Positions 2,723 to 21,992 of a stretch of 32,000 nt of DNA are shown here, in pieces. Positions within the stretch are counted from its first letter, which is position 1, and the number at the start of each line of letters is the position of its first letter. The DNA is from Bacillota bacterium (lineage in GTDB: Bacteria > Bacillota > DTU025 > MWDF01). A model generated the notes under the pieces. That model searched no databases, was not told the DNA's origin, and saw nothing but the letters and a program-made list of their open reading frames with translations. The stretch covers positions 1 through 32,000 of the forward strand of contig JAGOKM010000006.1 of NCBI GenBank assembly GCA_017994615.1, written 5' to 3'. The translations under genes and the position numbers were made by a program.

Positions 2723-5700
2723 TTAGAACTTGGTGCTCAGCTTTACGCCCAGTGTATTGACCAGGCTGTCCGGGTAGACAGCGTTGGTGTACTTCGCGTA
2801 CCTGGTCGTGAAGTCCGCTACCAGGCTGGTGTTGTTGAATATCTTCTGGTTGTATCCCACACCTGCGCTAAGTACGAATCCGTCAGGCTTGGTTCCGTCC
2901 ACGTAGTTCCTGTACTCGACTCCGCCCATCGCATAGAGGCTGGCCTTCTCGGTTATGTTGTAGGTCAGCTTCATGTCGGCGAACACCTTGAGCATCTCGA
3001 TGCTCTTGAAGTACGCGCCGAGGTTGGCGGCCAGGTTCCACTTCAGGAAGAAGCTGGTGTTAAGATGCAGGTCTCCGTATATCATCTGGTAAGGAGCTAT
3101 GCTGCCGAGCCTCTCGCTCGTGAACGTATCTCCGAACCTGCCCTCCCAACCGGCGTTGGCCCAGAGTACATCCTGGATGAGCTGCAGCTTCTCGAGCTTC
3201 AGGAATGCCAGGTAGGTGTTCCTGAGTGCCATTCCGGGCGCCTTTTCCGTCTCTCCGTAGTAGCTGAAGCCTGCGTCGAAGATATAGAGCTTCAGCTTAA
3301 GGTCGGCTCCTGCGTAGCAGAACGCGTCAGCCACGGAAGCGGGAGCCTGCCATGTGCCACCGATGATGGTGTCGGCTTGCCTGCCGCCGTAAAGCTTCAG
3401 CGAGCCCTTGGTCAGGCCTGCCACTTCGAAGGAGTACTTGGCATAGATCTCGTTGGTATGGGTCATGTTGGCCCATGCCGCATCGCCGTAGAAGCCGGTC
3501 AGAAGGCCGAACTCCAGGTTCGGAAGCACTTGGAACTTGTTGTAGATATCTACGTTCATGACGTCGCTGGATATGATGTCAGGATCCGTGCCGTCGGCGA
3601 ATTCGGCGAACTGAGGGGCGTAGCCGGCGCTTACGCGCTCGAACGACATGCCGGTGCTCCAGATGCCTACCTTGCCGTCCAGGTATGCCGTTATGGCCTG
3701 CTCAGGCATCGGGGCCGCCTGGAATACGAGGTTTGCGAACCCGCCCGCGCTCCAGTTCTCGTTCAGCGTCAGGTCGAGGTTAACTCCGATGTTCTTCTCC
3801 TTGGTGGACACCGTCGTGTCTCCGGAGAAGAGCCTGTCGTCTACCGCCAGGTAATGCAGGGTGAGGTCAACTATTTCGGCGTAGTTGGCATTGCCCGCGA
3901 GTCCCCAAACGTAATTGAAGTCGGTAGTCGAGCCGAGCTTCGCAAGTATGGCCGATGCGCCGAGGGTCATGTCCTCGACCAGCGTCGGGGTGTACTTCAT
4001 CCATCCGCTGAGGCCCTCATAGCCGGCTGCGGTGAACTTCTTGTCCGACATTACGTACTTGCTGATGTACTTGGGCCTCGACTGCTCCCCGCCGAGGATC
4101 TGGCCGGAGCCGTTGGGTCCGGTCACCTTGACGTCGAGGTCGCCGTTGAATACGTATGCCGCTACGTCCGCAATCCCGTAGGTGTCTACGCCGCCCGTCA
4201 GGCCGACGTTGATCTCCACTCCGGGCTCGGGCTTGATTGTGCCGTTGAGGGTGAGCGACGCTTTGTAGAGGTTGCTGGGATCGATCGTTCCCTTGGCGCT
4301 GTTGTACGGATCCTTGTAGGCAGGTCCGAACTTGACCTCCGTATCCTTGAACTCAACCGCGAATGTGCCTGAGAGCAGGAACTTGTTGACCCATAGGCTG
4401 GCCAGCTTGTCTGTCAGGCCCATGAGCCCGCTCTTGAGGCTCAGCACGTCAGCAGCGCTGGTCCCGGCCGCGCCTTCGAGGCTTGCGACCTTTGCGCTGA
4501 GGGCGTCTGCGCTGATTTTGTTGCTGGCTTCGAGAGCTGCAATCCTCTCATTGAGGGCCGCATCCGCCGCTGCCAGGTTCTTCAGCAGGTTCGTGTCATG
4601 GTTCTGCTGGATGTACAGGTCGTTGATGTCGTTCGCGTTCTGGGTTATCTGGTCCTGAAGAGGTCCGAGCAACCCAAGGTTGGCTGCCTGCTGCTCGAGG
4701 AGCCCTATTCTCATTAGAGCGTTGTCGACCTTGCCGCTTTCAAGCGAGGCCAGGTCAAGGTTGAGGAGGGCTATCTTCTCGTCCAGGAGCGCCATCTTGG
4801 CGTTTGCAGCTTCGCAGCACTCGTACAGGTAGTTGACCTGGTCGTAGAGCGCCTTGAGCTTCGTGATGTCATCCTGGGCCTCCAGAAGGTCGAGCCTTAG
4901 AAGGGCGATTTCTTCCTTGGTCACATCGGTGCCGGGCACTACGACCGGTGCCGGTGTAGAAGATGCCGTCGCTGCGGGCGCTGGCAGAGCCTTGATGGTG
5001 GCCTCAATGGCTGCGAACTTGGCTGCCATCTCTGCCTTGAGGGCGTTGATGTCGTCCGCGTTCTTATAGTTGAGGCTGTAGAGGTCCACGATGTCGGCGG
5101 TGTTCTGGCCGACCTGCTTCTTCATGGCGTCCAGATCGGCGGTGTTCTGGCCGACCTGCCAGTCCAAGGTGCCCAACTTGGCGTCGGTCTCGCTGGCCTT
5201 GAGCTCCAGCACGCCGACCCTGTTGTCTACTGTGTTGACCTTTGATTCGACAGCGTTCAGCTTGGAGGCCAGCGCGTCGTTGTTCATGGAACCGAGCTGC
5301 AGCTTGAGCGCTGCGATGTCGGCCTCGTTCTTGGCAACCCTGGCTTCCAGCTTCTTGAACTGCTCGTCAAGGGCGTCTACGCGGACGCCGAGTATAGAAA
5401 GCTCGCGGGAGAACTCGGTCCTGAGGTCCTGGATCATGGCATAGAGCTCGGCTATCCTTGCGTCTATGTCCTCGAGCTTCGGTCCTACTTGGGCCTCTAT
5501 CTTCTCCTTGATGATCTGCTCGAGGATGGTCTGGTCAGGTTCGACCTTGACCACCGTGGTCACCGGCGCAGGTGTCGGTACGGGCGTCGTCGTAACGGTG
5601 ACGGGTGTGGCCGCTGCCACATGGGCCACGATGCGCTCGTCCAGCCATTTCAGCAGCCTGGCTATTACGACTGCCAATTCGTACCTGGTGGTGGCTTGCG

Positions 5701-5875
5701 GGCCTTTGAAGGTTCCGTCAGGGTACCCTTCGAAGATTCCCAGTGCGGTCAGCTCCTTAATCGATTCGGTCGCCCAGTGGTAGTCCGGGACGTCCGGATA
5801 AGGGCTCGCCATCGCCGGCATCGCTACCGCCATGGCAAGCAGAACCGCAATTAGCATGGCTACGGTTCTCTTCAT
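2723..5875 (-). CDS. SLH-domain / long coiled-coil / large C-terminal beta-barrel outer-membrane tether protein (SlpA/OmpM-like)
   Basis: 1050 codons, ATG at 5875, RBS AGGGGGGT.
- Signal peptide MKRTVAMLIAVLLAMAVAMPAMA.
- Clear SLH motif PDVPDYHWATESIKELTALGIFEGYPDGTFKGPQATTRYELAVVIARLL.
- TPV-rich spacer.
- Heptad-like coiled coil at residues ~114-296 and ~318-494, split by the Pro/Ala/Thr hinge LPAPAATASSTPAPVVVPGTD.
- Residues ~495-1050 show a beta-strand pattern ending GVKLSTKF. Confidence 0.8.
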   Translation of the reverse strand: MKRTVAMLIAVLLAMAVAMPAMASPYPDVPDYHWATESIKELTALGIFEGYPDGTFKGPQATTRYELAVVIARLLKWLDERIVAHVAAATPVTVTTTPVPTPAPVTTVVKVEPDQTILEQIIKEKIEAQVGPKLEDIDARIAELYAMIQDLRTEFSRELSILGVRVDALDEQFKKLEARVAKNEADIAALKLQLGSMNNDALASKLNAVESKVNTVDNRVGVLELKASETDAKLGTLDWQVGQNTADLDAMKKQVGQNTADIVDLYSLNYKNADDINALKAEMAAKFAAIEATIKALPAPAATASSTPAPVVVPGTDVTKEEIALLRLDLLEAQDDITKLKALYDQVNYLYECCEAANAKMALLDEKIALLNLDLASLESGKVDNALMRIGLLEQQAANLGLLGPLQDQITQNANDINDLYIQQNHDTNLLKNLAAADAALNERIAALEASNKISADALSAKVASLEGAAGTSAADVLSLKSGLMGLTDKLASLWVNKFLLSGTFAVEFKDTEVKFGPAYKDPYNSAKGTIDPSNLYKASLTLNGTIKPEPGVEINVGLTGGVDTYGIADVAAYVFNGDLDVKVTGPNGSGQILGGEQSRPKYISKYVMSDKKFTAAGYEGLSGWMKYTPTLVEDMTLGASAILAKLGSTTDFNYVWGLAGNANYAEIVDLTLHYLAVDDRLFSGDTTVSTKEKNIGVNLDLTLNENWSAGGFANLVFQAAPMPEQAITAYLDGKVGIWSTGMSFERVSAGYAPQFAEFADGTDPDIISSDVMNVDIYNKFQVLPNLEFGLLTGFYGDAAWANMTHTNEIYAKYSFEVAGLTKGSLKLYGGRQADTIIGGTWQAPASVADAFCYAGADLKLKLYIFDAGFSYYGETEKAPGMALRNTYLAFLKLEKLQLIQDVLWANAGWEGRFGDTFTSERLGSIAPYQMIYGDLHLNTSFFLKWNLAANLGAYFKSIEMLKVFADMKLTYNITEKASLYAMGGVEYRNYVDGTKPDGFVLSAGVGYNQKIFNNTSLVADFTTRYAKYTNAVYPDSLVNTLGVKLSTKF
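4925..4987 (-). other. Pro/Ala/Thr-rich hinge interrupting the coiled coil (residues 297-317)
   Basis: Hand-mapped codons encode LPAPAATASSTPAPVVVPGTD between two heptad-rich segments of 183 and 177 residues. Confidence 0.7.
5094..5159 (-). repeat. perfect 24-nt direct repeat spaced 42 nt apart (14-codon duplication inside the coiled coil)
   Basis: tcggcggtgttctggccgacctgc occurs at 5094-5117 and again at 5136-5159. It encodes QVGQNTAD twice, in ...WQVGQNTADLDAMKKQVGQNTADIVDL... Confidence 0.9.
5642..5800 (-). other. SLH (S-layer homology) domain, residues ~26-78
   Basis: YPDVPDYHWATESIKELTALGIFEGYPDGTFKGPQATTRYELAVVIARLLKWL matches the SLH consensus (W-A...I..L...GI..GYPDGTF.P...iTR.E.A). 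Confidence 0.85.
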
Positions 5876-6125: not shown

Positions 6126-7469
6126 TTACGGCACCACCACAAGGGACATGCTGGGCTGCCCTTCGCTCCTTCGGATGTCCGTATCGGCGATTACCTGCAC
6201 GTTGACCTTCCTGCCGGTCTGGAGCACGTCGATTATGGCCTCTGTGAACTGCAGCGCCTTAATGAAGGTGCCGATCCTTCCTTCTTCGTCGCTGACCATG
6301 CCCTTGGCAAGGCCGATTGTGTTGACGTCCTCGATGAGCCTGAGTATCTCATACTGCACCTTGTCCGGGGAAAGCGCTCCGTCGACGACCCTCGAAGAGA
6401 CCACCTGGCCCTTGAAGAAGACTATCTCGTCCTCGAAGGTATGCAGAGAGATCCACAAGGGTTCTCCCGGCCAGCTGTTAACCGGCGACACAGCCCTCAT
6501 GATAACCAGCTTGCCCTGGGAAGAATACAGCTTCTGGAATGCCGCCAGCACGTTGTCCTCGTCGAAGTTCAAAGCCGATCCGTCCTGCCTGCCGGCGACC
6601 TCGCCCGCCCCTTTGGCCTTCGCTATTTCGTTCACCTTGATCAGGAAGTCGTTTATCTGCTGGTGTATGCCTCCTACCGGCTGAGAGCAGTCTATCACCG
6701 AGCCCAGGATTATCTGGTCGGCGTAGAATATCACCTGCGTCGTCATCGACGCCTCCTTGCTCTCTATCAGCAGCATGCTGGTCTGTATCAGGTTATCAAG
6801 CCGCTTTTCGAGGGAGGCGACCTCTTCTGTCAGCGCGTTCCTCGTCCCCTGGAGCTCAGAAATGTTGCGCTCGAGGTCCTTCCTCTCCTCTGAGAGGGTG
6901 GTTATCTCGCCCTGCTGCTCTTTGAGCAGTATGCCGGATTTCTGCACTTCCCTGCTCGCGTCGGTTAGCTCTCTTTCCGTTTCGGAAAGCTTCCTCTGGA
7001 TGTCCTGGAGGCCTTTCTTGAGCTCGTCGAGCTGCCTTGCGGTCACTGTCTTCTCGGAGTTCACCTTGCTGAGTTCCGCCGAAATCGCGCTGTAGTCGGA
7101 TTTCAGCTCTTCGTATTGCCCTCCGATGGTCGCCACCCTTGCGGTTAGCTCGTCTGCCTCGCGCATCTTGGCTGTCAGCTCGGACTTCGTGGCCTCGAGG
7201 GCCTCCCCGGTCTGTTTCAGGTCCTGTCTCAGCTGCTCTATCCTGAAGAGCGCTATGCGCACGTTCTCGGAGATGAGCGACAGGGCGCCGACAGTCAGTG
7301 CGACGACCAGCACCCCGGTTATGAAGGTAATCACTATGGAAGTGTACTTGGGCCTCAGTCCGAAAAGCGTTATCTTCTTCCTGCCGATGCGCATGCCGAT
7401 GCGGTCGCCCACTATGGCGAGCACTCCACCTAATATCCCCAGGAACACTATCAGCAACGCACCGTTCAA
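6126..7469 (-). CDS. DUF3084-like membrane protein: two N-terminal TM helices, ~170-aa coiled coil, C-terminal globular domain
   Basis: 447 codons. TTG start at 7469, with GGAGG (7475-7479) 5 nt upstream, 11 nt after the lptB stop. The N-terminus LLIVFLGILGGVLAIVGDRIGMRIGRKKITLFGLRPKYTSIVITFITGVLVV matches my memory of the DUF3084 N-terminal signature (GDRLG.K.GK.R.SLF.LRP). Residues ~68-238 are heptad- and charge-rich. Confidence 0.6.
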   Translation of the reverse strand: MNGALLIVFLGILGGVLAIVGDRIGMRIGRKKITLFGLRPKYTSIVITFITGVLVVALTVGALSLISENVRIALFRIEQLRQDLKQTGEALEATKSELTAKMREADELTARVATIGGQYEELKSDYSAISAELSKVNSEKTVTARQLDELKKGLQDIQRKLSETERELTDASREVQKSGILLKEQQGEITTLSEERKDLERNISELQGTRNALTEEVASLEKRLDNLIQTSMLLIESKEASMTTQVIFYADQIILGSVIDCSQPVGGIHQQINDFLIKVNEIAKAKGAGEVAGRQDGSALNFDEDNVLAAFQKLYSSQGKLVIMRAVSPVNSWPGEPLWISLHTFEDEIVFFKGQVVSSRVVDGALSPDKVQYEILRLIEDVNTIGLAKGMVSDEEGRIGTFIKALQFTEAIIDVLQTGRKVNVQVIADTDIRRSEGQPSMSLVVVP

Positions 7470-8220: not shown

Positions 8221-8883
8221 CTATACAGTGAAGTTGATCTCTATCTTCTCGCCTTCTGCCTCGAAGGTCTCCTTGTCGGTGTAGATAATCGCGCTGTCAG
8301 ACTTCACAGTGTCTCCGTCCACTGTGGTGATTACTACGCCCTTCGTCAAGGTCATCTTGCTCTCCGCATCGATGTACCTGGCTTCTGCGGCCTGAGCTTT
8401 CTGCTTGTCCTTCGTAATTGTGACGCCACCGGTCGCCGTGAAGTCGTTGGTGTTGATGTCTATCTCCATCCTCTGCGTAAGCAGTACGATGACGTCTTTG
8501 AGGGGTTTGCCTGCCGCGTCCTTTTCGGCCAGCTCCTCTGTCAGCTCTAGCTTCACATTGCCTGTGACGGTCATCTTCTCCGTCTTGAAGTCGGCGGTCA
8601 TCACGTTTGCCGTGATTACGATGTCGTCCTGGACGATCCTGACCCCTGTGTCTATCTTCGCAATCTTGGTGTCGCTGTTGAAAAGGAGCTTCTCCGCATA
8701 GATGAACGTGGTCCCGTATTCGATCTTGACGTTGCCCTCGACCATGGCGTCGCCCTTCTGGCCCTGGTAGTTCAGCTTCTTGGTCGCGGTTATGATGACC
8801 TGTTTGGCCGCCAGAGCCCCTGACGCGACAACAAGCACTAGTATAGCTGCCAATATCATTGTCCCGGTCTTCGTCCTATACAT
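8221..8883 (-). CDS. lptA: LptA-like periplasmic LPS-transport protein (OstA-like beta-jellyroll)
   Basis: 220 codons. Cleavable signal peptide (ILAAILVLVVASGALA-AK). Repeated GNVKI/GNVKL/GGVTI beta-strand motifs typical of the OstA/LptA fold. Located between lptC and lptB. Confidence 0.7.
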   Translation of the reverse strand: MYRTKTGTMILAAILVLVVASGALAAKQVIITATKKLNYQGQKGDAMVEGNVKIEYGTTFIYAEKLLFNSDTKIAKIDTGVRIVQDDIVITANVMTADFKTEKMTVTGNVKLELTEELAEKDAAGKPLKDVIVLLTQRMEIDINTNDFTATGGVTITKDKQKAQAAEARYIDAESKMTLTKGVVITTVDGDTVKSDSAIIYTDKETFEAEGEKIEINFTV

Positions 8884-8897
8884 TTCACTGCCCCTTT

Positions 8898-9545
8898 CTA
8901 GAGGTCGATGACAATCCTCAAGGGTCCGATGATCTCCATCTCGCGCCTTGTTACCGAATACCTCATGTTCCCTGCCGTTATGCTGACATTGTCGCCCTGC
9001 TTTGCTATGATGTCCGCCGTCGTATATATGTATTCGTCGTTAAGGTCCACGACCAGGTCCTTCGCCTTGACGGTGCCGCCGTCGGCAGTCACTTCCGCAT
9101 AGCCGGGGATGTGCACCTTCTGGGTGGCAGGGTCCCATGACATGGATTCTGTGGTCATGAGAGTTTTCCCTTCGGATGAGACGACCACCCCTTCGGTAAA
9201 CTGCATGCGGTTCCTTCCGTCCACGCTGGCCCTGCCTGCCTTGAAACCTAGGTAGGGGCCCTGCTGCCTGTAGATTACCCCTTTTGTGATATTGTTCAGC
9301 ACGGCGTTCCTTCCGAACCTCGGAAGCTCCATGCTTTCGACCTCCATCTCCCAGACCTTCTCGCCGTCGGCCCAGCTGGACATCGAAAGGCCCTTGATGA
9401 GGACCTCGGGCATCCCTTCCTGCCCGGGCGGCGCTTCTGTGGCCTGCAGGGGGTCTGTCGATTCCCTCACGAAGCCGTAGTAATACATGGCCGCAAACGC
9501 TACGGCCAGAACTGCGAATGCCGCGATGCCCGCCTTAAGGTTCAA
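8898..9545 (-). CDS. lptC: LptC-like membrane-anchored LPS-transport protein
   Basis: 215 codons with a TTG start at 9545. An uncleaved N-terminal TM anchor (GIAAFAVLAVAFAAMYYYGF) is followed by a beta-rich periplasmic domain. Its position immediately upstream of lptA-lptB fits LptC. Confidence 0.6.
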   Translation of the reverse strand: MNLKAGIAAFAVLAVAFAAMYYYGFVRESTDPLQATEAPPGQEGMPEVLIKGLSMSSWADGEKVWEMEVESMELPRFGRNAVLNNITKGVIYRQQGPYLGFKAGRASVDGRNRMQFTEGVVVSSEGKTLMTTESMSWDPATQKVHIPGYAEVTADGGTVKAKDLVVDLNDEYIYTTADIIAKQGDNVSITAGNMRYSVTRREMEIIGPLRIVIDL

Positions 9546-9569: not shown

Positions 9570-12500
9570 TCAGTTGAACAGCGTCCAGTCCCCGGTGCCT
9601 ATGCCGAGAGGGACATCGGGGAAAGCCTTGATCTTGAGGTTTACGAAGAACCTCTGCTCCACTGCCTGGTATCCTGCCGTTATCTCCCTGCAGTGCAAGT
9701 CCTTGGTTATGGCGAAGTCCGCCTTCCTAAGCCCTTCCCGCGCAACGTCGTAGATGAGCGCCCATACCAGGCGCCATTCCTCAAGGAACTTGAGGTCCCC
9801 GCTGGTCTCCACCTTGCTTATCTTCCCTGTCGACCCGTTGTATTCGGCCCCGAACTTCAATGCCACCTCCGGCACAGGCTTCAGGGTAAGGCGCGCGGTG
9901 AGAGTCGACAGTCTGAACAACGGAAGCGAGAACCTGGTCGTCACATCGGCCTGGTACTTGTCCTCATACTTGTAACCTACCGAAGCTGCGAAGCTGTCGT
10001 ACGTGGACTTCAGGAAATCATAGCCTGTGGAAGCGGCCAGCGTCACTCCGTAGAAAGTGGCTGAAGTCGAGCCTGTTATCTTGTTCCTGTCTCCGGCGCT
10101 GTCGAACCTGAAAGGCGTGCTCCCAAACCCTTTCGCATAGTCGTAGGACAGCTTTATGTCCCAGCCCTTCACGGGTTTGACTGTCAACGATGTGGAAACT
10201 CCCAGCCTGGTCCTGGCGTTTCCCGTTGTGTACAGGCTGCCAAGGAATGACCCGGACAGGTCGAAGAATCCATATCCCCAGAGGTTCATCCGGTCCAGGG
10301 ACAGCGAGATGTCGGCCTCGCCCTTGCCTGCGTCAAGGAACTCTACCGGATCGGTGTTCAATATCCTTTCGACGTACCTGCCGGCCGTCACCTTGACAGC
10401 GATCCCTGCAGGCAGCGAGCCCAGTTGCGTCCTGAACATCTCCATCTGCAGCTCCGGAAGCCTTTTCAGCGATGAGAGCACCACAGTCTGCTTCTCGTCC
10501 ATCGTCTCGGCGGACTGCAGGTTCAAGGTCAGCCTCCCCGACTTCTGCGAATGGACGAGGCTTGCCTTGTAGTTGATGCTCTCCATGCTCTTCGCCCCGT
10601 CTATCCCGGTCAGGCGGTAGCTGACATTGCCGCTCAGCTTAAGGCCCTCTGCCAGGTCGGAGCTGTGGTTCGCCGAGATGCTCAGCGTGGATGTGTCCTG
10701 CGCCGCATCCCTGAACCTGTACGAAAACTGCGCCGAAGTCCTGTCCTTGGCAGCGCTCCTGTCGAGCTTCAGCTCAGCGTATTGCTCGTCTGTGAGAATC
10801 CCGGCGCCGTCGGAGGACCCCTTGATGGAATACTTGACCGATGCGGTTATGCCCAAGGGTAGCCTGACGGCCTGGGAGATCTCGGCGTTCCAGCTTGCTG
10901 CAGTGGAAGTCAGGCTCTTGAGACCATAAAGGCTGTAGTATCCGTCGCCTTTCCCCTCTATCGTGTAATCATGCCGCAATCCGGCGCCTATGCCGCTTAT
11001 CTGGAAGAAGTCGAGCCTGATCGTAAGCTTGCCGGCGTCATCCAGAGGCCTTCTGAAGGTGTTCTTCACGTAAACGCCGTCGGCGCTGCTCCAGCCGAAT
11101 TCGGGGAGCGTGATCCTCTCCTGCTCCTTCAGGGGTATGGTGAGCACGGGCAGCTTCAGCAGCCTCATGTTCGCCTCGAAATAGGACACGTTCCTGGCGA
11201 TGATGTAGTCGCCCTCCACGAACTCTATGCTCTCAGCCTCTATCCGGTAGTGGGGCTGAGGTAGTTCGCAGGTCGTGAGATACCCTTCACCCAGCTTGTA
11301 CGACCCGTCCTTCTGGGTGAACTCCGCGCCGTTGAGGTATATGTATCCTTTGACCCTGTCGTCGCTGATCCTGCCCTCGAAGTTCTCGAAAGAGACCTCT
11401 CCTGTCCTTATGTCGACGTACGCCTTTTCGGAGGATACGACGCTGTCCCCCGTCTCTACGGTGACTATCCCTTTGAGCTCGGCCATGCCTGTCGTGACAT
11501 CTATCTGCGCGCTCCCTGCCTTGATGAGATAGCCCTCGAAGGAGATGACGACGTCTCCCTCCGCCCTCCAGACGTCCCCTCCGTCGTAGTAAATCCTTCT
11601 GGCGCTGACTTTGACGTTGGTCCCTGCGGCGGACGCCCCCCATGGGGCTGAAAGGACAAGCGCCGCTGCGAGCAACAACGCCAAGGCCGGCAGCCTCGGC
11701 TTGAACCTGGGCTTACGGCCCATCCTCCTTGAATCAGCCCTTATCAACAGGATTACGGCTGCGAGGGCGAACGCGATGTCCGCCGACCAGGCCGCCAGCC
11801 AGGGCTGGATCCTGGTCGCCTGCAGCATTCCGTAGGACCTGACCACCGATTCGAACACGAAGTACAGCGTCACTATTACAAGCCCGGCTCCTATGCTGTA
11901 GACGGCTCCACCTCTTCTCGGACTCCTCAGCGCAAGTGGCACGGCAAGCACCGCGAAGATGAGCGATGAAAGCGGCTGTGCGAGCTTGAGGTAATAGTCT
12001 ATCATCAGGTTCTTGGCCTTGATACCGCTCTTTGTGAATAGGGCTATGCTCTCCCTGAGGTCCTTCATGGACATCTCGGACGTAGTCCTCCCCGAGTTCG
12101 TATACTCGGTGACGGCCCTTTCCATCCTGATTTCCAGCACGTCGAAGTGCGCCGTCGATACGACCCTTCCGTCCTGGCCGCATTCGTGGATGTTGCCGTT
12201 CTCGAAGGCCCAGACGCCGGAATCGGCCTTGCCCTTGGCTGCGGTGATCAGCTGGGGATACCTTCCGTAGCCTATGTCGTATATCATCACGTCCTGGACC
12301 GTGGCCCGGTCATCGCTTATCCGGCCGATGTAGAAGAACTTATTGTCCGGCCCCCTGAAGAAGACGTTGTTTTCTATGCTTGGGATGCTGTCGCCCAGGA
12401 TCATCCTGTTGACGATGTTCCTGGATTCGAGGTTGGCCTTCGGCGCCACCTGGTCTCCCATGTAGAAGCCGAAGAGGCTGATTGCCGCCGAAAGGATTAT

Positions 12501-12809
12501 AAGGGGAAGGGCGATCCTCGACAACCTGAGGCCCGCCGCCCTCATGATCGAAAGCTCGCTGTCCTTGGATAACCTGCCCAGGCTGAGCAGTACGCCGAAG
12601 AGGGTGGCAAAGGGAAGCACCTGAACGATTGCCGCAGGCATGTTGTAGATGACGAGCTTCATGACAGTCCCGATGGGCGTTCGCTTGACCACGACCATCT
12701 CTGCCAGCCAGTATAGCTGGACGCTGAGGGATATGACTATGAACGCGGTTATCGCCGCCAGGAAGGGGCCGAGGAACTCCCGCGTTACATAACGGTCAAG
12801 CTTCCTCAT
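9570..12809 (-). CDS. in-frame fusion: LptF/LptG-family permease (res 1-362) + signal-peptide-like TM (363-394) + LptD (OstA N-domain and beta-barrel, 395-1078)
   Basis: This is a continuous 1079-codon ORF.
- The N-terminal part starts MRKLDRYVTREFLGPFL, has six hydrophobic segments and a periplasmic beta-jellyroll insert (res ~120-270), as in the YjgP/YjgQ (LptF/G) family.
- The C-terminal part carries OstA-like strands (WRAEGDVVISFEGYLIKAGSAQIDVTTGMAELKGIVTV), the LptD-like TTCELPQPHYRIEAESIEF motif, and ~500 aa of beta-barrel-like sequence. Confidence 0.8.
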   Translation of the reverse strand: MRKLDRYVTREFLGPFLAAITAFIVISLSVQLYWLAEMVVVKRTPIGTVMKLVIYNMPAAIVQVLPFATLFGVLLSLGRLSKDSELSIMRAAGLRLSRIALPLIILSAAISLFGFYMGDQVAPKANLESRNIVNRMILGDSIPSIENNVFFRGPDNKFFYIGRISDDRATVQDVMIYDIGYGRYPQLITAAKGKADSGVWAFENGNIHECGQDGRVVSTAHFDVLEIRMERAVTEYTNSGRTTSEMSMKDLRESIALFTKSGIKAKNLMIDYYLKLAQPLSSLIFAVLAVPLALRSPRRGGAVYSIGAGLVIVTLYFVFESVVRSYGMLQATRIQPWLAAWSADIAFALAAVILLIRADSRRMGRKPRFKPRLPALALLLAAALVLSAPWGASAAGTNVKVSARRIYYDGGDVWRAEGDVVISFEGYLIKAGSAQIDVTTGMAELKGIVTVETGDSVVSSEKAYVDIRTGEVSFENFEGRISDDRVKGYIYLNGAEFTQKDGSYKLGEGYLTTCELPQPHYRIEAESIEFVEGDYIIARNVSYFEANMRLLKLPVLTIPLKEQERITLPEFGWSSADGVYVKNTFRRPLDDAGKLTIRLDFFQISGIGAGLRHDYTIEGKGDGYYSLYGLKSLTSTAASWNAEISQAVRLPLGITASVKYSIKGSSDGAGILTDEQYAELKLDRSAAKDRTSAQFSYRFRDAAQDTSTLSISANHSSDLAEGLKLSGNVSYRLTGIDGAKSMESINYKASLVHSQKSGRLTLNLQSAETMDEKQTVVLSSLKRLPELQMEMFRTQLGSLPAGIAVKVTAGRYVERILNTDPVEFLDAGKGEADISLSLDRMNLWGYGFFDLSGSFLGSLYTTGNARTRLGVSTSLTVKPVKGWDIKLSYDYAKGFGSTPFRFDSAGDRNKITGSTSATFYGVTLAASTGYDFLKSTYDSFAASVGYKYEDKYQADVTTRFSLPLFRLSTLTARLTLKPVPEVALKFGAEYNGSTGKISKVETSGDLKFLEEWRLVWALIYDVAREGLRKADFAITKDLHCREITAGYQAVEQRFFVNLKIKAFPDVPLGIGTGDWTLFN
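11628..11723 (-). other. internal signal-peptide-like / seventh TM segment at the LptF/G-LptD junction
   Basis: Codons 363-394 encode MGRKPRFKPRLPALALLLAAALVLSAPWGASA. This has a basic n-region, a hydrophobic core and an A-x-A motif. The in-frame ATG at 11723-11721 is immediately preceded by AAGGAGG. Confidence 0.7.
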
Positions 12810-12837
12810 GGCTGAACTGCCTTTCGATTATGTGAAT

Positions 12838-12865
12838 AGAGGGGCGCAGTCAATTGCGCCCCTCT
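12838..12865 (-). terminator. GC-rich hairpin between skp and the lptF/G-lptD ORF (weak or partial terminator, or RNA-processing element)
   Basis: 11-bp perfect stem (agaggggcgca 12838-12848 pairs with tgcgcccctct 12855-12865) and a 6-nt loop. On the minus strand it is followed by ATTCACATAA, which is not a real U-tract. Confidence 0.35.
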
Positions 12866-12885
12866 TCAAAGGAAACTGCAGCCTG

Positions 12886-13344
12886 CTACTTCGTTGCACC
12901 CTTGGCGAGGACGGCTGCGGTCATGTCCATTCCGCCTTCGATGACTATCGAGCTGTTGAGTATCACAGTGACGCCCATTTCCTTTGCGACTGCCTTGACT
13001 GCCTCTTCCAGCTTTGCGTATGCCGGATCGAGAGTCTTCTTTGCATAGTCGTTGTAGCTGGCGTTGTACTGCTCTACGAGCTTGTTCTTGGTGTCAGCGT
13101 CCTGGCCCTCCGCCTTCTTGTTCAACTCCGTCTCAAGGGCCGCCTTCTTGCTGGCGACCGCCGCCCATGCCGTCTTCAGGGCCGGGAACTCCGAGTTGAG
13201 CTTGTCGGTATCGATATGGCCGATGACTGCATATTCCGGGGCCGCGCCTGCCTTTCCGGTGGTTACGTTGCTGATCGTGGCGGCTATGGCGACCAGGGCA
13301 ATGGCCATGACAATCGCCGTGGTGTTCCTGAAAAGGTTCTTCAT
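12886..13344 (-). CDS. skp: Skp/OmpH-family periplasmic chaperone
   Basis: 152 codons with a signal-anchor-like N-terminus. The helical, Lys/Glu/Ala-rich body (KKAALETELNKKAEGQDADTKNKLVEQYNASYNDYAKK) is typical of OmpH. It lies immediately downstream of bamA, the conserved bamA-skp arrangement. Confidence 0.75.
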   Translation of the reverse strand: MKNLFRNTTAIVMAIALVAIAATISNVTTGKAGAAPEYAVIGHIDTDKLNSEFPALKTAWAAVASKKAALETELNKKAEGQDADTKNKLVEQYNASYNDYAKKTLDPAYAKLEEAVKAVAKEMGVTVILNSSIVIEGGMDMTAAVLAKGATK

Positions 13345-13427: not shown

Positions 13428-15134
13428 TTAGAACGTATGCCCGAAGCCGAAATACACCCGGCCCTCTCCGTTGGACACTCCGTAGTCCAGCCTCACCATC
13501 CCGAGTATCGGTATGTTCACCCTCGCGCCTATGCCCACACCGTACTTCAGGTTGTCCCATGTGAACTTATCGCCCTTGCTCCAGGTCTCCCCGAGGTCGA
13601 AGAACACGACGCCTCCGATCACGTCCTCATAGATCCTGAACCTGTACTCCGCGTTGGCGAACGCAATGTAGTCTCCGCTTAAAGGCACTTTGAGCCCCCT
13701 TAGGTTGGTGCCGCCTCCGAGAAGGAAGGCCGCATGCTCTGGAAGCGCAGGGAAACCGCCGCCGATGCCTATCCTGCCCGCTATTACGTGCCCGTCCTTG
13801 AACTCATAGTACCCGGTGGTCTGCGCATAGAGCTTCGTGAAGTTGTCGTCGCCCCCGAGTATCCCGCCTGCGAACTCGGTCGACGCGAATACTGTGTAAC
13901 CTTTGGTGGGGCTTATGAAATCGTCCCTCGTGTCGCGCGTCAACGACAGGGTAAAGCTCCTGGTGGAGGAGTCCTGTGGAACCGCAGGGTCGGGCACTTC
14001 GGTGTCGTTGCTTATGAAATCGAGCCTGAAGGATGCGTTGGCCTTAGTGTACAGGTCGAAATAGTAGCCGATCCATGCGTTGCCGCCGGTGCGGTACTGC
14101 TTGTATGTCAGGTCGCCCTCAGGGCCTTCAGGGTCATACTCGATGGTCTTGTTGGCCATCCTCCGGTATATGTCCAGGCCGGCTTCCAGCTTGTCGGTGA
14201 AAAGGTAGGGCGTAGATACGCTGAACTCCCCCGTGACGAGCTTCTCCTTGCCGCCTGCCTCGAGCCTTCCTGACACTTTTATACCGTAGCCGAATATGTT
14301 CTTGTCGGAGATCTCGACGTAGCCTATGAGGCCTTCGGACGAGTTATATGTGGCCCCCACGTTGAATAGGCCTGTCTGGCTCTCCTTCACCACGAATACG
14401 ACGTCGGCGTATGGCCCCTCTTCCACGGGTTTGAGCTCCACTCCGACCTCGTCGAATATGCCTGTGTTGTAGATCCTCCTGCTGTCGTCCGAGATGACGC
14501 CCATGTTTATGAACTCGCCCTCTGTGAGCCTGATGTTCCTCCTTATGATCTCTTCCTTCGTCTTTGAGTTCCCTGAGATCACTACAGAGCCGACCTTCCA
14601 CTCCAAGACTTTGACGACGACGGAGCCGTCCATGCTGATCTCCGGCTCAAGGCTCGCTATGTATCCCTTTTCCTTATACAGCCCTACTATCCCGTCGAGG
14701 TCAGCCCTCAATGTGTTTGCATTGATCATCTTTCCGACCACGGATTTCATCCTTGAGAGAAGTTCGTCCGTGCTCATAAGGGTGTTGCCGGTAACCTCTA
14801 TGCTTTTCAGGTCGGGGAACTCGAGCACCGTTATGATGAGCTTTATCCCGCCCAGGAATACCTGGGAGCGGGCCCCCAGGTCCGCGAAGTGCCCGCTTGC
14901 CTGAAGAGCGGCGAACGCCTTGTCGAGGTCCTGCTGGGTCAGTTCCATACCGATGGTCAGCGGCACGAGGCCCTTTATGTAGGCTGAATCCAGCTTCTTG
15001 TTCCCCTCTATCTCTATGCCGGCAAGCCTGCCGTAAGACTGCTCAGCTGCAGCAGCCGGCAGGGCCAGCGCCAGTGCCAGTGCCAATCCTAGTGTCAGCA
15101 GGGCCAACGTCCTGCCCTTGCGGCTTTTAAACAT
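13428..15134 (-). CDS. bamA: outer-membrane protein assembly factor BamA (Omp85), three POTRA-like repeats
   Basis: The ORF track starts at 15200. The ATG at 15134 (MFKSRKGRTLALLTLGLALALALALPAAAAE) has AGGAGGT (15141-15147) 6 nt upstream and gives a proper signal peptide. There are three ~75-aa POTRA-like units, then an Omp85 barrel with GGGTNLRGL and the C-terminal RVYFGFGHTF. Confidence 0.9.
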   Translation of the reverse strand: MFKSRKGRTLALLTLGLALALALALPAAAAEQSYGRLAGIEIEGNKKLDSAYIKGLVPLTIGMELTQQDLDKAFAALQASGHFADLGARSQVFLGGIKLIITVLEFPDLKSIEVTGNTLMSTDELLSRMKSVVGKMINANTLRADLDGIVGLYKEKGYIASLEPEISMDGSVVVKVLEWKVGSVVISGNSKTKEEIIRRNIRLTEGEFINMGVISDDSRRIYNTGIFDEVGVELKPVEEGPYADVVFVVKESQTGLFNVGATYNSSEGLIGYVEISDKNIFGYGIKVSGRLEAGGKEKLVTGEFSVSTPYLFTDKLEAGLDIYRRMANKTIEYDPEGPEGDLTYKQYRTGGNAWIGYYFDLYTKANASFRLDFISNDTEVPDPAVPQDSSTRSFTLSLTRDTRDDFISPTKGYTVFASTEFAGGILGGDDNFTKLYAQTTGYYEFKDGHVIAGRIGIGGGFPALPEHAAFLLGGGTNLRGLKVPLSGDYIAFANAEYRFRIYEDVIGGVVFFDLGETWSKGDKFTWDNLKYGVGIGARVNIPILGMVRLDYGVSNGEGRVYFGFGHTF

Positions 15135-15259
15135 CGAAGTACCTCCTGATGGTCGAGCTTCGTGGGGTGTACGCCCCTGTCTGCGCCAGAATGTCCGCAC
15201 TGCTGTTATTATCTAACGCACTGCCCGCAGAACACGTTCCCGCGCCTACTTTATATATT

Positions 15260-16957
15260 TTACTTCACTTCCGACTCTTCTGAAACGAAACCTTTTACGA
15301 CGCTCTGTATTATTACGCTGGTCCTATACAAGGGCTCTCCGTCATATGGCTCGCCTTCGGCCCCCTGATCGTACGGAAGGGCCTCATCCTGGGCCCCTTC
15401 GCGCTCATAGTAGATCTCGAGCACGACTTCGTTGTTCTGGTCGGCGGACCCTATGTCTTCGAGCAATTCGGAAACGGACCTTCCGCCAGTGTCCCCGACC
15501 TTGTCTCCGATTGTGTAGGCTTCGTCCTCGTCCTCGGAGGCGCCGCCGAAGGCTGATACCGACACCGTTCCCGGGTCCGTACCTGCGGGAAGCATGACCT
15601 CGATCTGCTTTGTGTACTCCTCGCCCCTGAAAGGCCTTATCCTCACGCCGACAGACTGCGGAGTCCCCGGCACGAAGCCCCCCTCCGGAAGCTCTATGCC
15701 AGTGATTACGGATGTCAGCCTTACTGGGGCGATGTCGACGGTCACTTGAATGCCGGATACTGCCGCCTCTTCAACGTCGTTTCCGAGTATCAGGGCGATG
15801 ATGTCGGAGACTTCCCCCGTCACCGATGTCCCTATGTCGTTGCCCGACCAGACCATGTCCTCCCTTATTAGCTGCCCGGAGCCTGTCTTTATGAGCACCG
15901 ATATGTAGGCGGTGCCTTCCCCGACCCTCATTATCGAGCCGTCTATGGTGGACAGCACGGCCGAGGCTACGAGGTCCTCCATCAGCCTTTCATCCCGCAC
16001 GCATTTCAGGCTGGACGATTTCCTCCTGCCCGTTTGCATGTCGTTCGCCCTGACGGAAACGTCAGCCATGGAAGCTGTAGTGCCTATCGTGCCGGCCAGC
16101 CCATACGACCGGTCCTGCGTCACCACGGCCGACGGGGCTTCGAAAGTGCCGAGCTTGAACGGGAAGGAATCTGAGGGCAGCACTGCAAGCACCGTAGACT
16201 TCGACATGGGAAGCTCCACGGAGCCTATGTTCAGCATCGGATGCCCGAAGGCGAGGAAGCTCCTGCCGTCGGTCCATGTGAGTGTTCCTATGGCGCCGGC
16301 CTCGACGTCCCCGTTGCACATCTGGACTGCGATCGACGAGCCTGCCACGTAGCCTCCGTCCCTGTCCTCGTCGCTTGAAGATGCCCCTATCGCCATGACC
16401 GGGCTGACCTTGTAACCCTTCGACCTGAAGCCCTCCTTCAGCTCGTCAAGGGCCCTTCCGGCAAGGCCGCTCACCCATACTGGCGTCGAGGCTGGCTTGA
16501 AGCACCCCCATCCGTCGATTTCGATCCTGTCTCCGGCAGATGCCAGCTTTCCTGCCTCAAGTAGCCTGACCATCGCGCTCATCGGCGTTATTATGCCGAT
16601 AAACGGGTCGGGACCTTCTAGCACATGCGAGAGCGCGCCGATCAGCTTGCCTGAAAGATAGCAGGGGCTTCCGCTCATGCCCGCAGCTATGCCGCCTATC
16701 TCGTCTATGCTGGGGCCGGACACCCTGGCTATTATGAGGTAGTCTGAGCTGTCTTCGCCCTTCGTTACTGCCAGCACCTTGAAATCGAAGCTGGAAGGCT
16801 CGCTGCCCGCGAACACGGTGAGACCGTATCCCGACACGCCCGGCTTGATATCCTTCGGTTCCAGATAGATTGGGGCGCCAAGGGCCGCGGCTGCAAGGAA
16901 GGCGATTGACAGCAGCGCCGATGCCGCAATCCATGGGATGGCGCGTCTTCTTTGCAT
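15260..16957 (-). CDS. secreted S55 (SpoIVB-like) serine peptidase homologue with permuted motif order and long acidic C-terminal region
   Basis: 565 codons with signal peptide IAASALLSIAFLAAAALGAP. GGIAAGMSGSPCYLSGKLIGALSHV (Ser95) resembles the SpoIVB Ser motif GIVQGMSGSPII.NGK.IGAVTHV. AGAIGTLTWTDGRSFLAFGHP (His239) resembles the SpoIVB His motif AGIGTMTFY...ALGH. The comparison is from my memory of B. subtilis SpoIVB. Confidence 0.5.
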   Translation of the reverse strand: MQRRRAIPWIAASALLSIAFLAAAALGAPIYLEPKDIKPGVSGYGLTVFAGSEPSSFDFKVLAVTKGEDSSDYLIIARVSGPSIDEIGGIAAGMSGSPCYLSGKLIGALSHVLEGPDPFIGIITPMSAMVRLLEAGKLASAGDRIEIDGWGCFKPASTPVWVSGLAGRALDELKEGFRSKGYKVSPVMAIGASSSDEDRDGGYVAGSSIAVQMCNGDVEAGAIGTLTWTDGRSFLAFGHPMLNIGSVELPMSKSTVLAVLPSDSFPFKLGTFEAPSAVVTQDRSYGLAGTIGTTASMADVSVRANDMQTGRRKSSSLKCVRDERLMEDLVASAVLSTIDGSIMRVGEGTAYISVLIKTGSGQLIREDMVWSGNDIGTSVTGEVSDIIALILGNDVEEAAVSGIQVTVDIAPVRLTSVITGIELPEGGFVPGTPQSVGVRIRPFRGEEYTKQIEVMLPAGTDPGTVSVSAFGGASEDEDEAYTIGDKVGDTGGRSVSELLEDIGSADQNNEVVLEIYYEREGAQDEALPYDQGAEGEPYDGEPLYRTSVIIQSVVKGFVSEESEVK

Positions 16958-20903: not shown

Positions 20904-21992
20904 TCACTTCGTTCCGTAAAGCCTGTCGCCCGCGTCTCCCAGCCCCGGCACGATGTAACCGTGGTCGTTCAGCTTCTCGTCGACCGCAGCTACGTAGATC
21001 TCCACGTCCGGATGGGCCTCGAGGATCTTCCTTATCCCGACCGGGGCGGATACTATGGAGACAACCTTGATGCTCCTGGCGCCGGCCTCCTTGAGCAGGT
21101 CTATCCCTTTGACTATCGTGCCGCCCGTCGCCAGCATCGGATCCACCAGGATCATGCTCCTCTCGGAGGTGTCGAGGGGCAGCTTGGAATAGTACTGGAC
21201 GGGCATGAGCGTCTCGGGGTCTCTGTAAAGGCCTATGTGACCCATCCTTGCGCCGGGCATCATCTCAAGTATCGATTCGGCCATCGCAAGCCCGGCCCTC
21301 AGAACCGCCACTATGCCGAAATGCTTGCCCGCCATGACCTTCGCCTTGGCCTTGCATATGGGAGTCTCGATGTCTACTTCTGCAAGCGGCACGTCCCTTG
21401 TCACTTCATAGGCCATCAGCTTCGCCATCTCGGACACCAGCTCCCTGAAGTGCCTGGGCTCGGTGTCCTTCTGCCTCATGAGGCACAGTTTGTGCTGTAT
21501 CAGCGGGTGCTCTATGACATGCACGTTCGCATGGCCCTCCCAGCCGCCCTTTGGGGCGGGGGCCTCCTCCAGCTTGCACACGCGCCTCCTGTGCCTGCCC
21601 TCCTGGAACTCGGCCGCAAGCCATGTCTCCAGCATCTCGGGTGCTATCTCCGCGCTCGGGGTGCGGGCCCCTATGCACATCACGTTCGCGTCGTTGTGCT
21701 CCCTTGACAGCCTTGCGGTCTCAAGGTCGTATACTACAGCCGCCCTTATCCCGGGCACTTTGTTCGCCTTGATTGACATGCCTATGCCGGTCCCGCAGAT
21801 GAGGACCCCCCTGTCCGCCTCGCCTCGCGCCACGTCCTCTGCCACGAGGGCCGCGAAGTCAGGGTAGTCAACCGACGTCGAAACGTAAGTCCCGCGGTCA
21901 ACAGCAGTATGACCGAGGGATTGGATCTTGCCTATAAGCTTCTTCTTAAGGTCGAAACCAGCGTGGTCGGAACCGATGGAAACCTTCATCAT
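20904..21992 (-). CDS. rpiB/upp: in-frame fusion of ribose-5-phosphate isomerase B (res ~1-143) and uracil phosphoribosyltransferase (res ~156-361)
   Basis: The N-terminal part carries [29 protein letters not shown] and [11 protein letters not shown] (RpiB/LacAB). A 12-aa linker follows ([12 protein letters not shown], 21528-21563). The C-terminal part carries [23 protein letters not shown] and [17 protein letters not shown] (Upp). There is no stop codon between the two parts. Confidence 0.85.

Follow-up and report, generated by a model that had tools for sequence, protein, structure and literature searches.

The window studied here is a 32,000-nucleotide stretch of DNA from a Bacillota bacterium (assembly GCA_017994615.1, contig JAGOKM010000006.1, positions 1 to 32,000 of the forward strand). 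It carries one long open reading frame (ORF), here called lptF/G-lptD, which joins a lipopolysaccharide (LPS) permease of the LptF/LptG type to an outer-membrane translocon of the LptD type. Comparison with related sequences indicated that this ORF is a genuine, evolutionarily maintained fusion gene in a clade of uncultured diderm Bacillota. Its product is probably a polyprotein (rough probability 0.7), which signal peptidase I would cut into LptF/G with an extra C-terminal helix and mature LptD. Coordinates are collected in Table 1.

An initial annotation, made from the letters alone, had described a single uninterrupted frame of 1079 codons that begins with an LptF/LptG-like part of six hydrophobic segments and a periplasmic insert. 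Both points were confirmed, and the strand (minus) was added. The N-terminus, MRKLDRYV, was the same in all homologues compared. A Pfam scan placed PF03739 (LptF_LptG) on amino acids 6–357 (profile positions 1–353 of 353, E = 4.7e-83); the score of 279.6 bits, against a gathering cut-off of 27.9, put this part in the LptF/LptG (YjgP/YjgQ) family. The NCBIfam equivalogs TIGR04408 (LptG) and TIGR04407 (LptF) scored 196.9 and 177.9, under their cut-offs of 240 and 230, so the domain was classed as undifferentiated LptF/G. Hydropathy segments were found at about residues 8–41, 52–80, 92–119, 274–294, 300–324 and 336–358, and a seventh at about 371–396, beyond the permease domain. In its six transmembrane (TM) helices, in the periplasmic domain that separates TM3 from TM4 and in having an lptB gene as partner, this part agrees with LptF/G. 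The window holds one LptF/G copy only. This single copy suggests a homodimeric LptF/G transporter, a possibility already raised from the lone permease and one that fits the literature on diderm Firmicutes (PMC5007114, PMC13018214).

Identity of the C-terminal half

Profile hidden Markov models (HMMs) had been expected to detect both halves. The YjgP/YjgQ model detected the permease half, whereas the OstA and LptD models did not detect theirs. Amino acids 395–1079 matched no LptD family in Pfam or NCBIfam, even at E ≤ 10, and PF04453 (LptD), PF19838 (LptD_2) and PF03968 (LptD_N) gave no direct match to the window protein at this threshold. Marginal LptD_N matches were found in several family members. 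The only extra match for the C-terminal 721 amino acids was a TorF-type porin (E = 0.006), which was set aside as generic barrel similarity. A profile of five close homologues, compared with the PDB sequences, gave only a spurious proteasome match (E = 1.9).

The family was collected by an exhaustive HMMER search of 1.84 billion representatives. At E ≤ 1e-3 the family had 3048 proteins, of which 132 also passed E ≤ 1e-30. The majority stand alone, with a length of 700–780 amino acids and a match to the module that starts 30–70 residues from the N-terminus; NCBI names some of them "LPS-assembly protein LptD". Fused members are named "LptF/LptG family permease", in one case "LptD", or "hypothetical protein". 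A five-sequence alignment gave an unusable AlphaFold model (predicted local distance difference test, pLDDT, 52) and was replaced by a 65-sequence alignment (A2). The A2 profile matched solved LptD structures (8h1r_A, 4.9e-27; 7omm_A, 1.1e-26; 5iv9_A, 2.8e-18) over the jellyroll, the barrel start and the C-terminal strands, and LptA structures at about 1e-9 to 1e-10. It also reached proteins bearing PF04453 or PF19838 at about 1e-39. Word-index searches with A2 and alignment A4 added the P0245 lineage and provided these links to PF04453/PF19838, and yielded no wider census.

The AlphaFold2 model built from A2 had a pLDDT of 92.8 and a predicted template modelling score of 0.80. It was all-beta with 42 strand segments, of which about 12 belong to the jellyroll and about 26–30 to the barrel (DSSP segments, an approximate count). 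In a Foldseek search of the PDB, the top 37 matches were all LptD, with E-values down to 4.5e-25, probability 1.00, full-length alignments and a template modelling score of about 0.56. TonB-dependent receptors came next, at only about 1e-6.

In E. coli LptD, the interdomain cysteines are C31/C173 with C724/C725. The window protein keeps one putative LptD-type pair, C514 and C1040, and the second pair is missing. The block TTCELPQPHY is the most conserved of the family; its TTC...PHY motif aligns opposite FTSC/YTRC of LptD, and DLHC aligns opposite the LptD CC pair. Cys514 and Cys1040 are therefore presumed to be interdomain disulfide partners.

Because the A2 profile matches, the confident model and the fold search agree, the C-terminal half is identified as a predicted genuine LptD that is too divergent for the curated HMMs. 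The initial assignment of codons 395–1078 to LptD, with a jellyroll and a large barrel, thus stood. No LptE turned up among the scanned ORFs of the window, though no search aimed at LptE was made; LptE has been reported absent in diderm Firmicutes (PMC13018214).

Spread and origin of the fusion

Six clusters at 90% identity, from JGI, ENA, NCBI and Logan, contained proteins 65–100% identical to the window protein, all of 1079–1083 amino acids. The cluster of the window protein itself held eight independent 1079-residue copies from NCBI, ENA, JGI and Logan. Homologues P0001–P0006, P0013 and P0018 share the architecture at 1079–1106 amino acids. The GTDB species representatives were also scanned and their frames classified by HMM. 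The LptD module was found at 80 loci, and at seven of them (L001–L006 and L037) it lay in one stop-to-stop frame with LptF/G.

A missed stop or a frameshift between two separate genes could give the same picture. Neighbouring lineages do have separate genes, sometimes with one in-frame stop between them (L007), and a long-read genome of the fused clade (L005/P0007) has a frameshift further downstream. But dozens of independent assemblies, drawn from four repositories, show the fused frame, as do seven species-level genomes. At the junction, the frame is unbroken in five other species, and the codons differ between species, synonymously and non-synonymously, with no indels. This comparison and the independent copies excluded an error near positions 11724–11740, the place that the initial annotation had named for a possible refutation, and we regard an assembly or sequencing artefact as refuted with near certainty. 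The window assembly is also not the sole fused case, as a survey of relatives turned up both fused and split genes.

In L005 (CAWGMK010000010.1, about 6681–7288), the LptD part is split over two frames and P0007 stops at 621 amino acids. This break is probably a homopolymer sequencing error and not biology. P0008 and P0009 (817–826 amino acids) are a different kind of Lpt fusion, LptF-LptG tandems with two PF03739-type halves; they came from the weaker matches and were set aside.

More distant fused lineages were found. P0013/L006 has 1100 amino acids, with 31% identity in the module; P0018 has 1106 amino acids, with 24% identity and a GC content of 32%; P0153 comes from a Halanaerobiales metagenome-assembled genome (MAG) and has 1059 amino acids; and P0245 has 1143 amino acids and a different genomic context. 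In a neighbour-joining tree of low resolution, the window group, P0013 and P0018 formed one clade and P0153 lay elsewhere, which suggests at least two fusion events. Bacillota-type lptF/G-lptD loci also occur in two MAGs labelled "Betaproteobacteria bacterium" (L008) and "Chitinophagales bacterium" (L031). In the tree, L008 falls among Bacillota sequences, and both labels probably reflect a taxonomic mislabel or a mis-binned contig.

The initial annotation had set the fusion against E. coli, in which lptF/G and lptD are at unlinked loci. That framing does not apply to these lineages, where the two genes adjoin and often overlap. An lptF/G gene lies directly upstream of an lptD-like gene, on the same strand, at about 50 of the 80 loci; the labels of these loci include Bacillota, Limnochordia, Atribacterota and Armatimonadota. 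In 14 loci, the lptD start is at −3, 0, +1 or +3 nucleotides from the lptF/G stop. Since the genes are adjacent and often overlap, fusion is a small evolutionary step. In a Bacillota MAG, UBA6811 (L007:5737-5748), the stop-to-stop frames of lptF/G and of the lptD-like gene are one and the same reading frame and one stop codon lies between them, with the first ATG 7 nucleotides past the dividing stop. This locus looks like an intermediate one mutation from fusion.

The permease half of the window protein ends in ...IRADSRR, the same point at which split orthologues end in ...R(A/S)(D/E)xxR-stop. Split orthologues begin LptD at the same position, with a Met followed by a basic, hydrophobic, AxA leader; for example, the LptD signal peptide of L022 reads MWGIKVRTWRNLIKRAAALLALLALLGGAAWA↓KDP (arrows mark cuts). 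Because split proteins end and start exactly at the junction, the fusion is explained by loss of the stop codon between adjacent, translationally coupled genes, and the linker by the old signal peptide. The adjacency itself is ancestral. The split pairs of Limnochordia, other Bacillota, Atribacterota and Armatimonadota consist of orthologous modules with the same order and junction positions. The stop codon, still present in these pairs, is gone from the window clade, from the Halanaerobiales MAG P0153 and from the P0245 lineage.

The linker and the fate of the product

The region between the two domains reads RADSRR-M-GRKPRFKPR-LPALALLLAAALVL-SAPWGASA↓AGTNVKV. The window linker has a tripartite structure, that is, a basic n-region, a hydrophobic h-region and a c-region whose −3 and −1 residues are small and whose helix breaker falls between −6 and −4. 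The hydrophobic core has only 14 residues and is followed by helix breakers. The same tripartite pattern was found in nine further fused sequences from five lineages. Pro or Gly between −6 and −4, and small side chains at −3 and −1, are kept in all fused lineages, whose c-region variants are ASA↓A, SSA↓A, AAA↓Q, AMA↓R, ARA↓A, AVA↓E/K, VSA↓Y, VSG↓T and AFA↓Q. The linker is also the fastest-evolving part of the protein: within the close clade it is 34% identical, against 84% for the LptF/G part and 61% for the LptD part. This low identity fits a signal peptide, because signal peptides evolve in that way. These comparisons identify the linker as the former N-terminal signal peptide of LptD, homologous in position and pattern.

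An ATG at Met363 opens this segment and is probably a relic of the ancestral lptD start codon. Initiation there would give a pre-LptD with its own signal peptide, and the read-through fusion would then be minor or incidental. Split relatives start lptD at this position, and purine-rich codons precede the Met (AGGAGG ATG in the window). However, the spacing of AGGAGG is zero and the next purine run is about 12 nucleotides upstream, neither of which is a normal Shine-Dalgarno distance, and the purine-rich codons encode conserved R/K residues. No convincing Shine-Dalgarno site or promoter was seen at the junction. Met363 is kept in most of the close clade (the window protein, P0002, P0003, P0005, P0006, P0007 and L004). 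It is absent from P0004, which has Thr, and from four deeper lineages (P0013/L037, P0018, P0153 and P0245). Moreover, there is no stop, so ribosomes on lptF/G would still read through. Internal initiation may contribute in some species; it cannot be a general solution, and we consider it quite unlikely as the explanation.

Four overlapping GC-rich terminator-like stem-loops lie on the minus strand at 11659-11700, precisely where the internal signal peptide is encoded. The regional stem-loop total is within the shuffled expectation, and Ala and Leu codons probably explain them.

The C-terminus of LptF/G proteins is cytoplasmic, as established for the family. A basic stretch followed by a hydrophobic segment that runs N-in/C-out would thus have the orientation of a signal peptide. 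The initial proposal that a seventh TM segment makes the fusion topologically coherent agrees with this topology and with the hydropathy scan. We propose the following sequence of events. The six TM helices of LptF/G would insert, leaving the C-terminus in the cytoplasm, and the basic stretch of residues 360–372 would stay inside. The hydrophobic segment 373–386 would enter the Sec translocon N-in/C-out and start export of the next 685 residues. Signal peptidase I would cut after ASA394, leaving LptF/G with one extra C-terminal helix and freeing a normal mature LptD. Skp and BamA, encoded just upstream, would deliver LptD to the outer membrane and fold it there. LPS would then pass from LptB2(F/G)2 through LptC and LptA to LptD. 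Of the two readings offered in the initial annotation, release at ASA-AG and a covalent tether between the membranes, the first is favoured: the linker and the N-terminal leaders of split LptD proteins are homologous, and the cleavage-site pattern is kept.

Several points weigh against this polyprotein reading. The tripartite structure and the cleavage site were judged by eye with the −3/−1 rule, and not with SignalP. For every member, cleavage and the fate of the extra helix are deduced from sequence. The uncharged stretch, including the c-region, is 19–29 residues long, enough in principle for a stable TM anchor; a comparison of its length between fused linkers and split signal peptides was distorted by truncation and given no weight. 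The published Thermotoga fusion has been read as an envelope-spanning protein (PMC10160955). Finally, if the fusion is neutral once cleaved, the reason why it has persisted over so deep a clade (24–31% identity between members) is left unexplained, and this persistence could hint at a function of the fused state.

Some of these points suit an uncleaved signal-anchor, in which one covalent chain would comprise the inner-membrane permease and the outer-membrane translocon and tether both membranes. The uncharged stretch could span a bilayer, the fusion has been kept over deep divergence and seems to have arisen more than once, and the Thermotoga LptF/G-LptA-LptD fusion is drawn as envelope-spanning and is enriched in the toga fraction (PMC10160955). 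The comparative evidence disfavours this tether. All fused lineages retain a signal-peptidase-type c-region despite fast divergence of the linker. In the AlphaFold2 model, the first jellyroll strand begins about 6 residues past the predicted cut, and only about 5–6 residues separate the hydrophobic segment from it. With so short a gap, an uncleaved chain would pin the LptA-docking edge of the jellyroll to the inner membrane while the barrel lies in the outer one. The bridge genes lptC and lptA are kept as genes of their own beside the fusion in the window clade, P0018 and Halanaerobiales. In addition, folding of a 26-strand barrel by the β-barrel assembly machinery normally uses a free periplasmic substrate. 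We therefore consider the tether improbable.

It is likewise unlikely, in our estimate, that the fused state itself is selected, whether through an uncleaved tether fraction, through co-translational placing or through a role of the seventh helix. In one form of this idea, co-translational export of LptD through the very translocon into which LptF/G had just been threaded would set each new LptD opposite its own ABC transporter and seed assembly of the Lpt bridge. In another, the leftover seventh helix of LptF/G might take a structural role in the homodimeric transporter.

Genomic setting and known systems

The gene order in the window is bamA, skp, lptF/G-lptD, lptC, lptA and lptB (Table 1), so that the predicted LptD is associated with lptA, lptC, lptB and outer-membrane biogenesis genes. 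This context is shared by the P0153 and P0018 lineages and not by P0245. Downstream of the fusion, the loci of the window clade, of P0018 and of Halanaerobiales encode LptC and LptA separately; no such genes lie beside P0245. That both genes are kept implies a normal multi-protein bridge.

Table 1. Positions of the fused gene, its parts and the neighbouring genes in the window
Feature	Position	Strand	Remarks
lptF/G-lptD fusion gene	9570..12809	minus	single ORF, 1079 codons + stop, ATG start, uninterrupted
LptF/LptG permease domain, aa 1-359	11733..12809	minus	six TM segments, periplasmic insert between TM3 and TM4
Linker, aa 360-394 (35 residues)	11628..11732	minus	read as retained LptD signal peptide
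Linker n-region SRRMGRKPRFKPR, aa 360-372	11694-11732	minus	basic
Linker h-region LPALALLLAAALVL, aa 373-386	11652-11693	minus	14-residue hydrophobic core
Linker c-region SAPWGASA	11628-11651	minus	
Predicted signal peptidase I site, A394↓A395	between bases 11628 and 11627	minus	ASA↓AG
Internal ATG, Met363	11721..11723	minus	AGGAGG abuts ATG, zero spacing
Predicted LptD N-terminal beta-jellyroll, OstA/LptA type, aa 395-559	11133..11627	minus	A2 aligns to LptD N-domains and LptA; model strands pLDDT >90
LptD-like outer-membrane beta-barrel, aa 560-1079	9573..11132	minus	AlphaFold2, Foldseek, profile matches to barrel termini
Cys514, TTC motif	11268..11270	minus	invariant in family; aligns with FTSC/YTRC Cys at jellyroll end of solved LptD
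Cys1040, DLHCRE motif	9690..9692	minus	invariant in family; aligns with near-C-terminal CC pair of solved LptD
lptC, 215 aa, N-terminal TM anchor	8898..9545	minus	PF06835, E=7e-11; 24 nt downstream of fusion gene
lptA, 220 aa, OstA/LptD_N jellyroll	8221..8883	minus	own signal peptide ...ASGALA↓AK; PF03968, PF13100, PF06835
lptB, ABC ATPase, 239 aa	7481..8200	minus	PF00005, E=3.5e-35
skp/ompH chaperone gene	12886..13344	minus	PF03938; directly upstream of fusion gene
bamA, POTRA domains and Omp85 barrel	13428..15200	minus	PF01103, PF07244

Other minus-strand features of the window were recorded. The 76-nucleotide spacer between skp and the fusion gene (12810-12885) contains a GC-rich hairpin, AGAGGGGCGCA-ATTGAC-TGCGCCCCTCT, followed by CATAAT; the two may act as a terminator or attenuator plus a promoter element where the lpt operon begins. 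Directly downstream of lptB (6126-7469) is a gene for a DUF3084 coiled-coil protein. A DUF3084 gene is found in the same place in the P0018 locus L083, and it may be a conserved, uncharacterised member of the outer-membrane/Lpt cluster. Immediately upstream of bamA (15260-16957), a 565-residue protein with a SpoIVB-type S55 peptidase domain is encoded, which may relate to the BamA-linked Son genes of sporulating diderm Firmicutes. A protein of 1050 amino acids (2723-5875) has an SLH domain at its N-terminus, then a long coiled-coil-like stretch and, towards the C-terminus, a weak barrel match to DUF5777; it looks like an unusually long outer-membrane tether of the OmpM/Omp-alpha type. An apparent fusion of 362 amino acids (20904-21992) joins ribose-5-phosphate isomerase B (residues 4–141) to uracil phosphoribosyltransferase (residues 159–361). 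A 1249-residue ORF with a GTG start (28243-31992) has repeated purple-acid-phosphatase-N/fn3 domains and a C-terminal F5/8 type C domain, and a 442-residue ORF (822-2150) has no Pfam match.

Between lptA and lptB, the Halanaerobiales and P0018 loci (L081:10101-12458 and L083:10936-13284) encode a membrane protein of about 785 amino acids that carries no annotation. The two copies are 23% identical (E = 8e-45), have no Pfam match and are absent from the window cluster; an additional ABC ATPase gene comes next in L083. They were considered as a second LptD or LptF/G and were rejected, as they showed no similarity to either.

The Lpt machine of Proteobacteria, LptB2FGC-LptA-LptDE, resembles that of the window in its LptF/G-type permease, LptC, LptA and LptB, in an LptD with a jellyroll and a very large barrel, and in a conserved, presumably interdomain Cys pair. 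It differs in several respects. The window has one LptF/G and not an F+G heterodimer; lptF/G and lptD are contiguous and fused, and not unlinked; and its LptD has one Cys pair instead of two and is too divergent for PF04453. A reported internally processed polyprotein offers a further likeness. FbcH of Bradyrhizobium japonicum, a cytochrome b/c1 polyprotein, is said to be split by leader peptidase at an internal signal peptide. As in the window product, a polytopic inner-membrane protein comes first and an exported component of the same machine last, with the signal peptide between them. The likeness ends there, since neither the proteins nor the pathway are related, and the exported part remains at the inner membrane and does not go to the outer one.

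The diderm Firmicute Acetonema longum has been proposed to use an LptF/G homodimer, no LptE and an atypical 16-strand LptD (Nat Commun 2026, PMC13018214). It shares with the window a single LptF/G and LptD-like outer-membrane proteins with an N-terminal jellyroll near LPS genes. Its functional LptD, F7NLY8, is a separate gene product of 480 amino acids with 16 predicted strands, whereas the window module is fused and has 685 amino acids and about 26–30 strand segments.

The initial annotation knew of no described LptFG-LptD fusion. There is a precedent, as a Thermotoga LptF/G-LptA-LptD fusion was published in 2023. The Thermotoga maritima protein G4FGC1, a "fusion pABC permease", has LptF/G, LptA and LptD domains in one polypeptide (PNAS 2023, PMC10160955). 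Conservation across Thermotogae and enrichment in the toga are reported for it (PMC10160955), so that the fusion architecture is not unprecedented. As published, G4FGC1 is alike in having LptF/G followed by a jellyroll and an LptD-like barrel in a single chain. It is also kept across a whole Terrabacteria-side phylum and is tied to an outer envelope layer. Thermotoga, however, is without LPS synthesis genes, and the proposal for its protein is that a single chain crosses the envelope and transports other lipids. The window instead has a full LPS/outer-membrane cluster, separate lptC, lptA and lptB genes, and an internal signal peptide with a predicted cleavage site. A literature search found no description of such a fusion in Bacillota that produce LPS, nor any account of the internal signal peptide or of how the fusion arose from overlapping genes.

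Diderm Firmicutes were described with a single LptF/G and no LptD (eLife 2016, PMC5007114), and lptD was scored absent from "atypical diderms" in a 2022 survey (PMC8871954). A divergent but, by our comparison, genuine LptD directly after lptF/G stands against these reports of a missing lptD, and it bears on the arguments over the ancestry of the LPS outer membrane. For annotation, the fused proteins of 1080–1140 amino acids are now labelled only "LptF/LptG family permease" or "hypothetical protein". A polyprotein that joins a polytopic membrane protein to an outer-membrane protein would be a natural test case for internal signal peptide processing, and the Thermotoga "envelope-spanning" fusion is open to re-reading as an internally cleaved protein.

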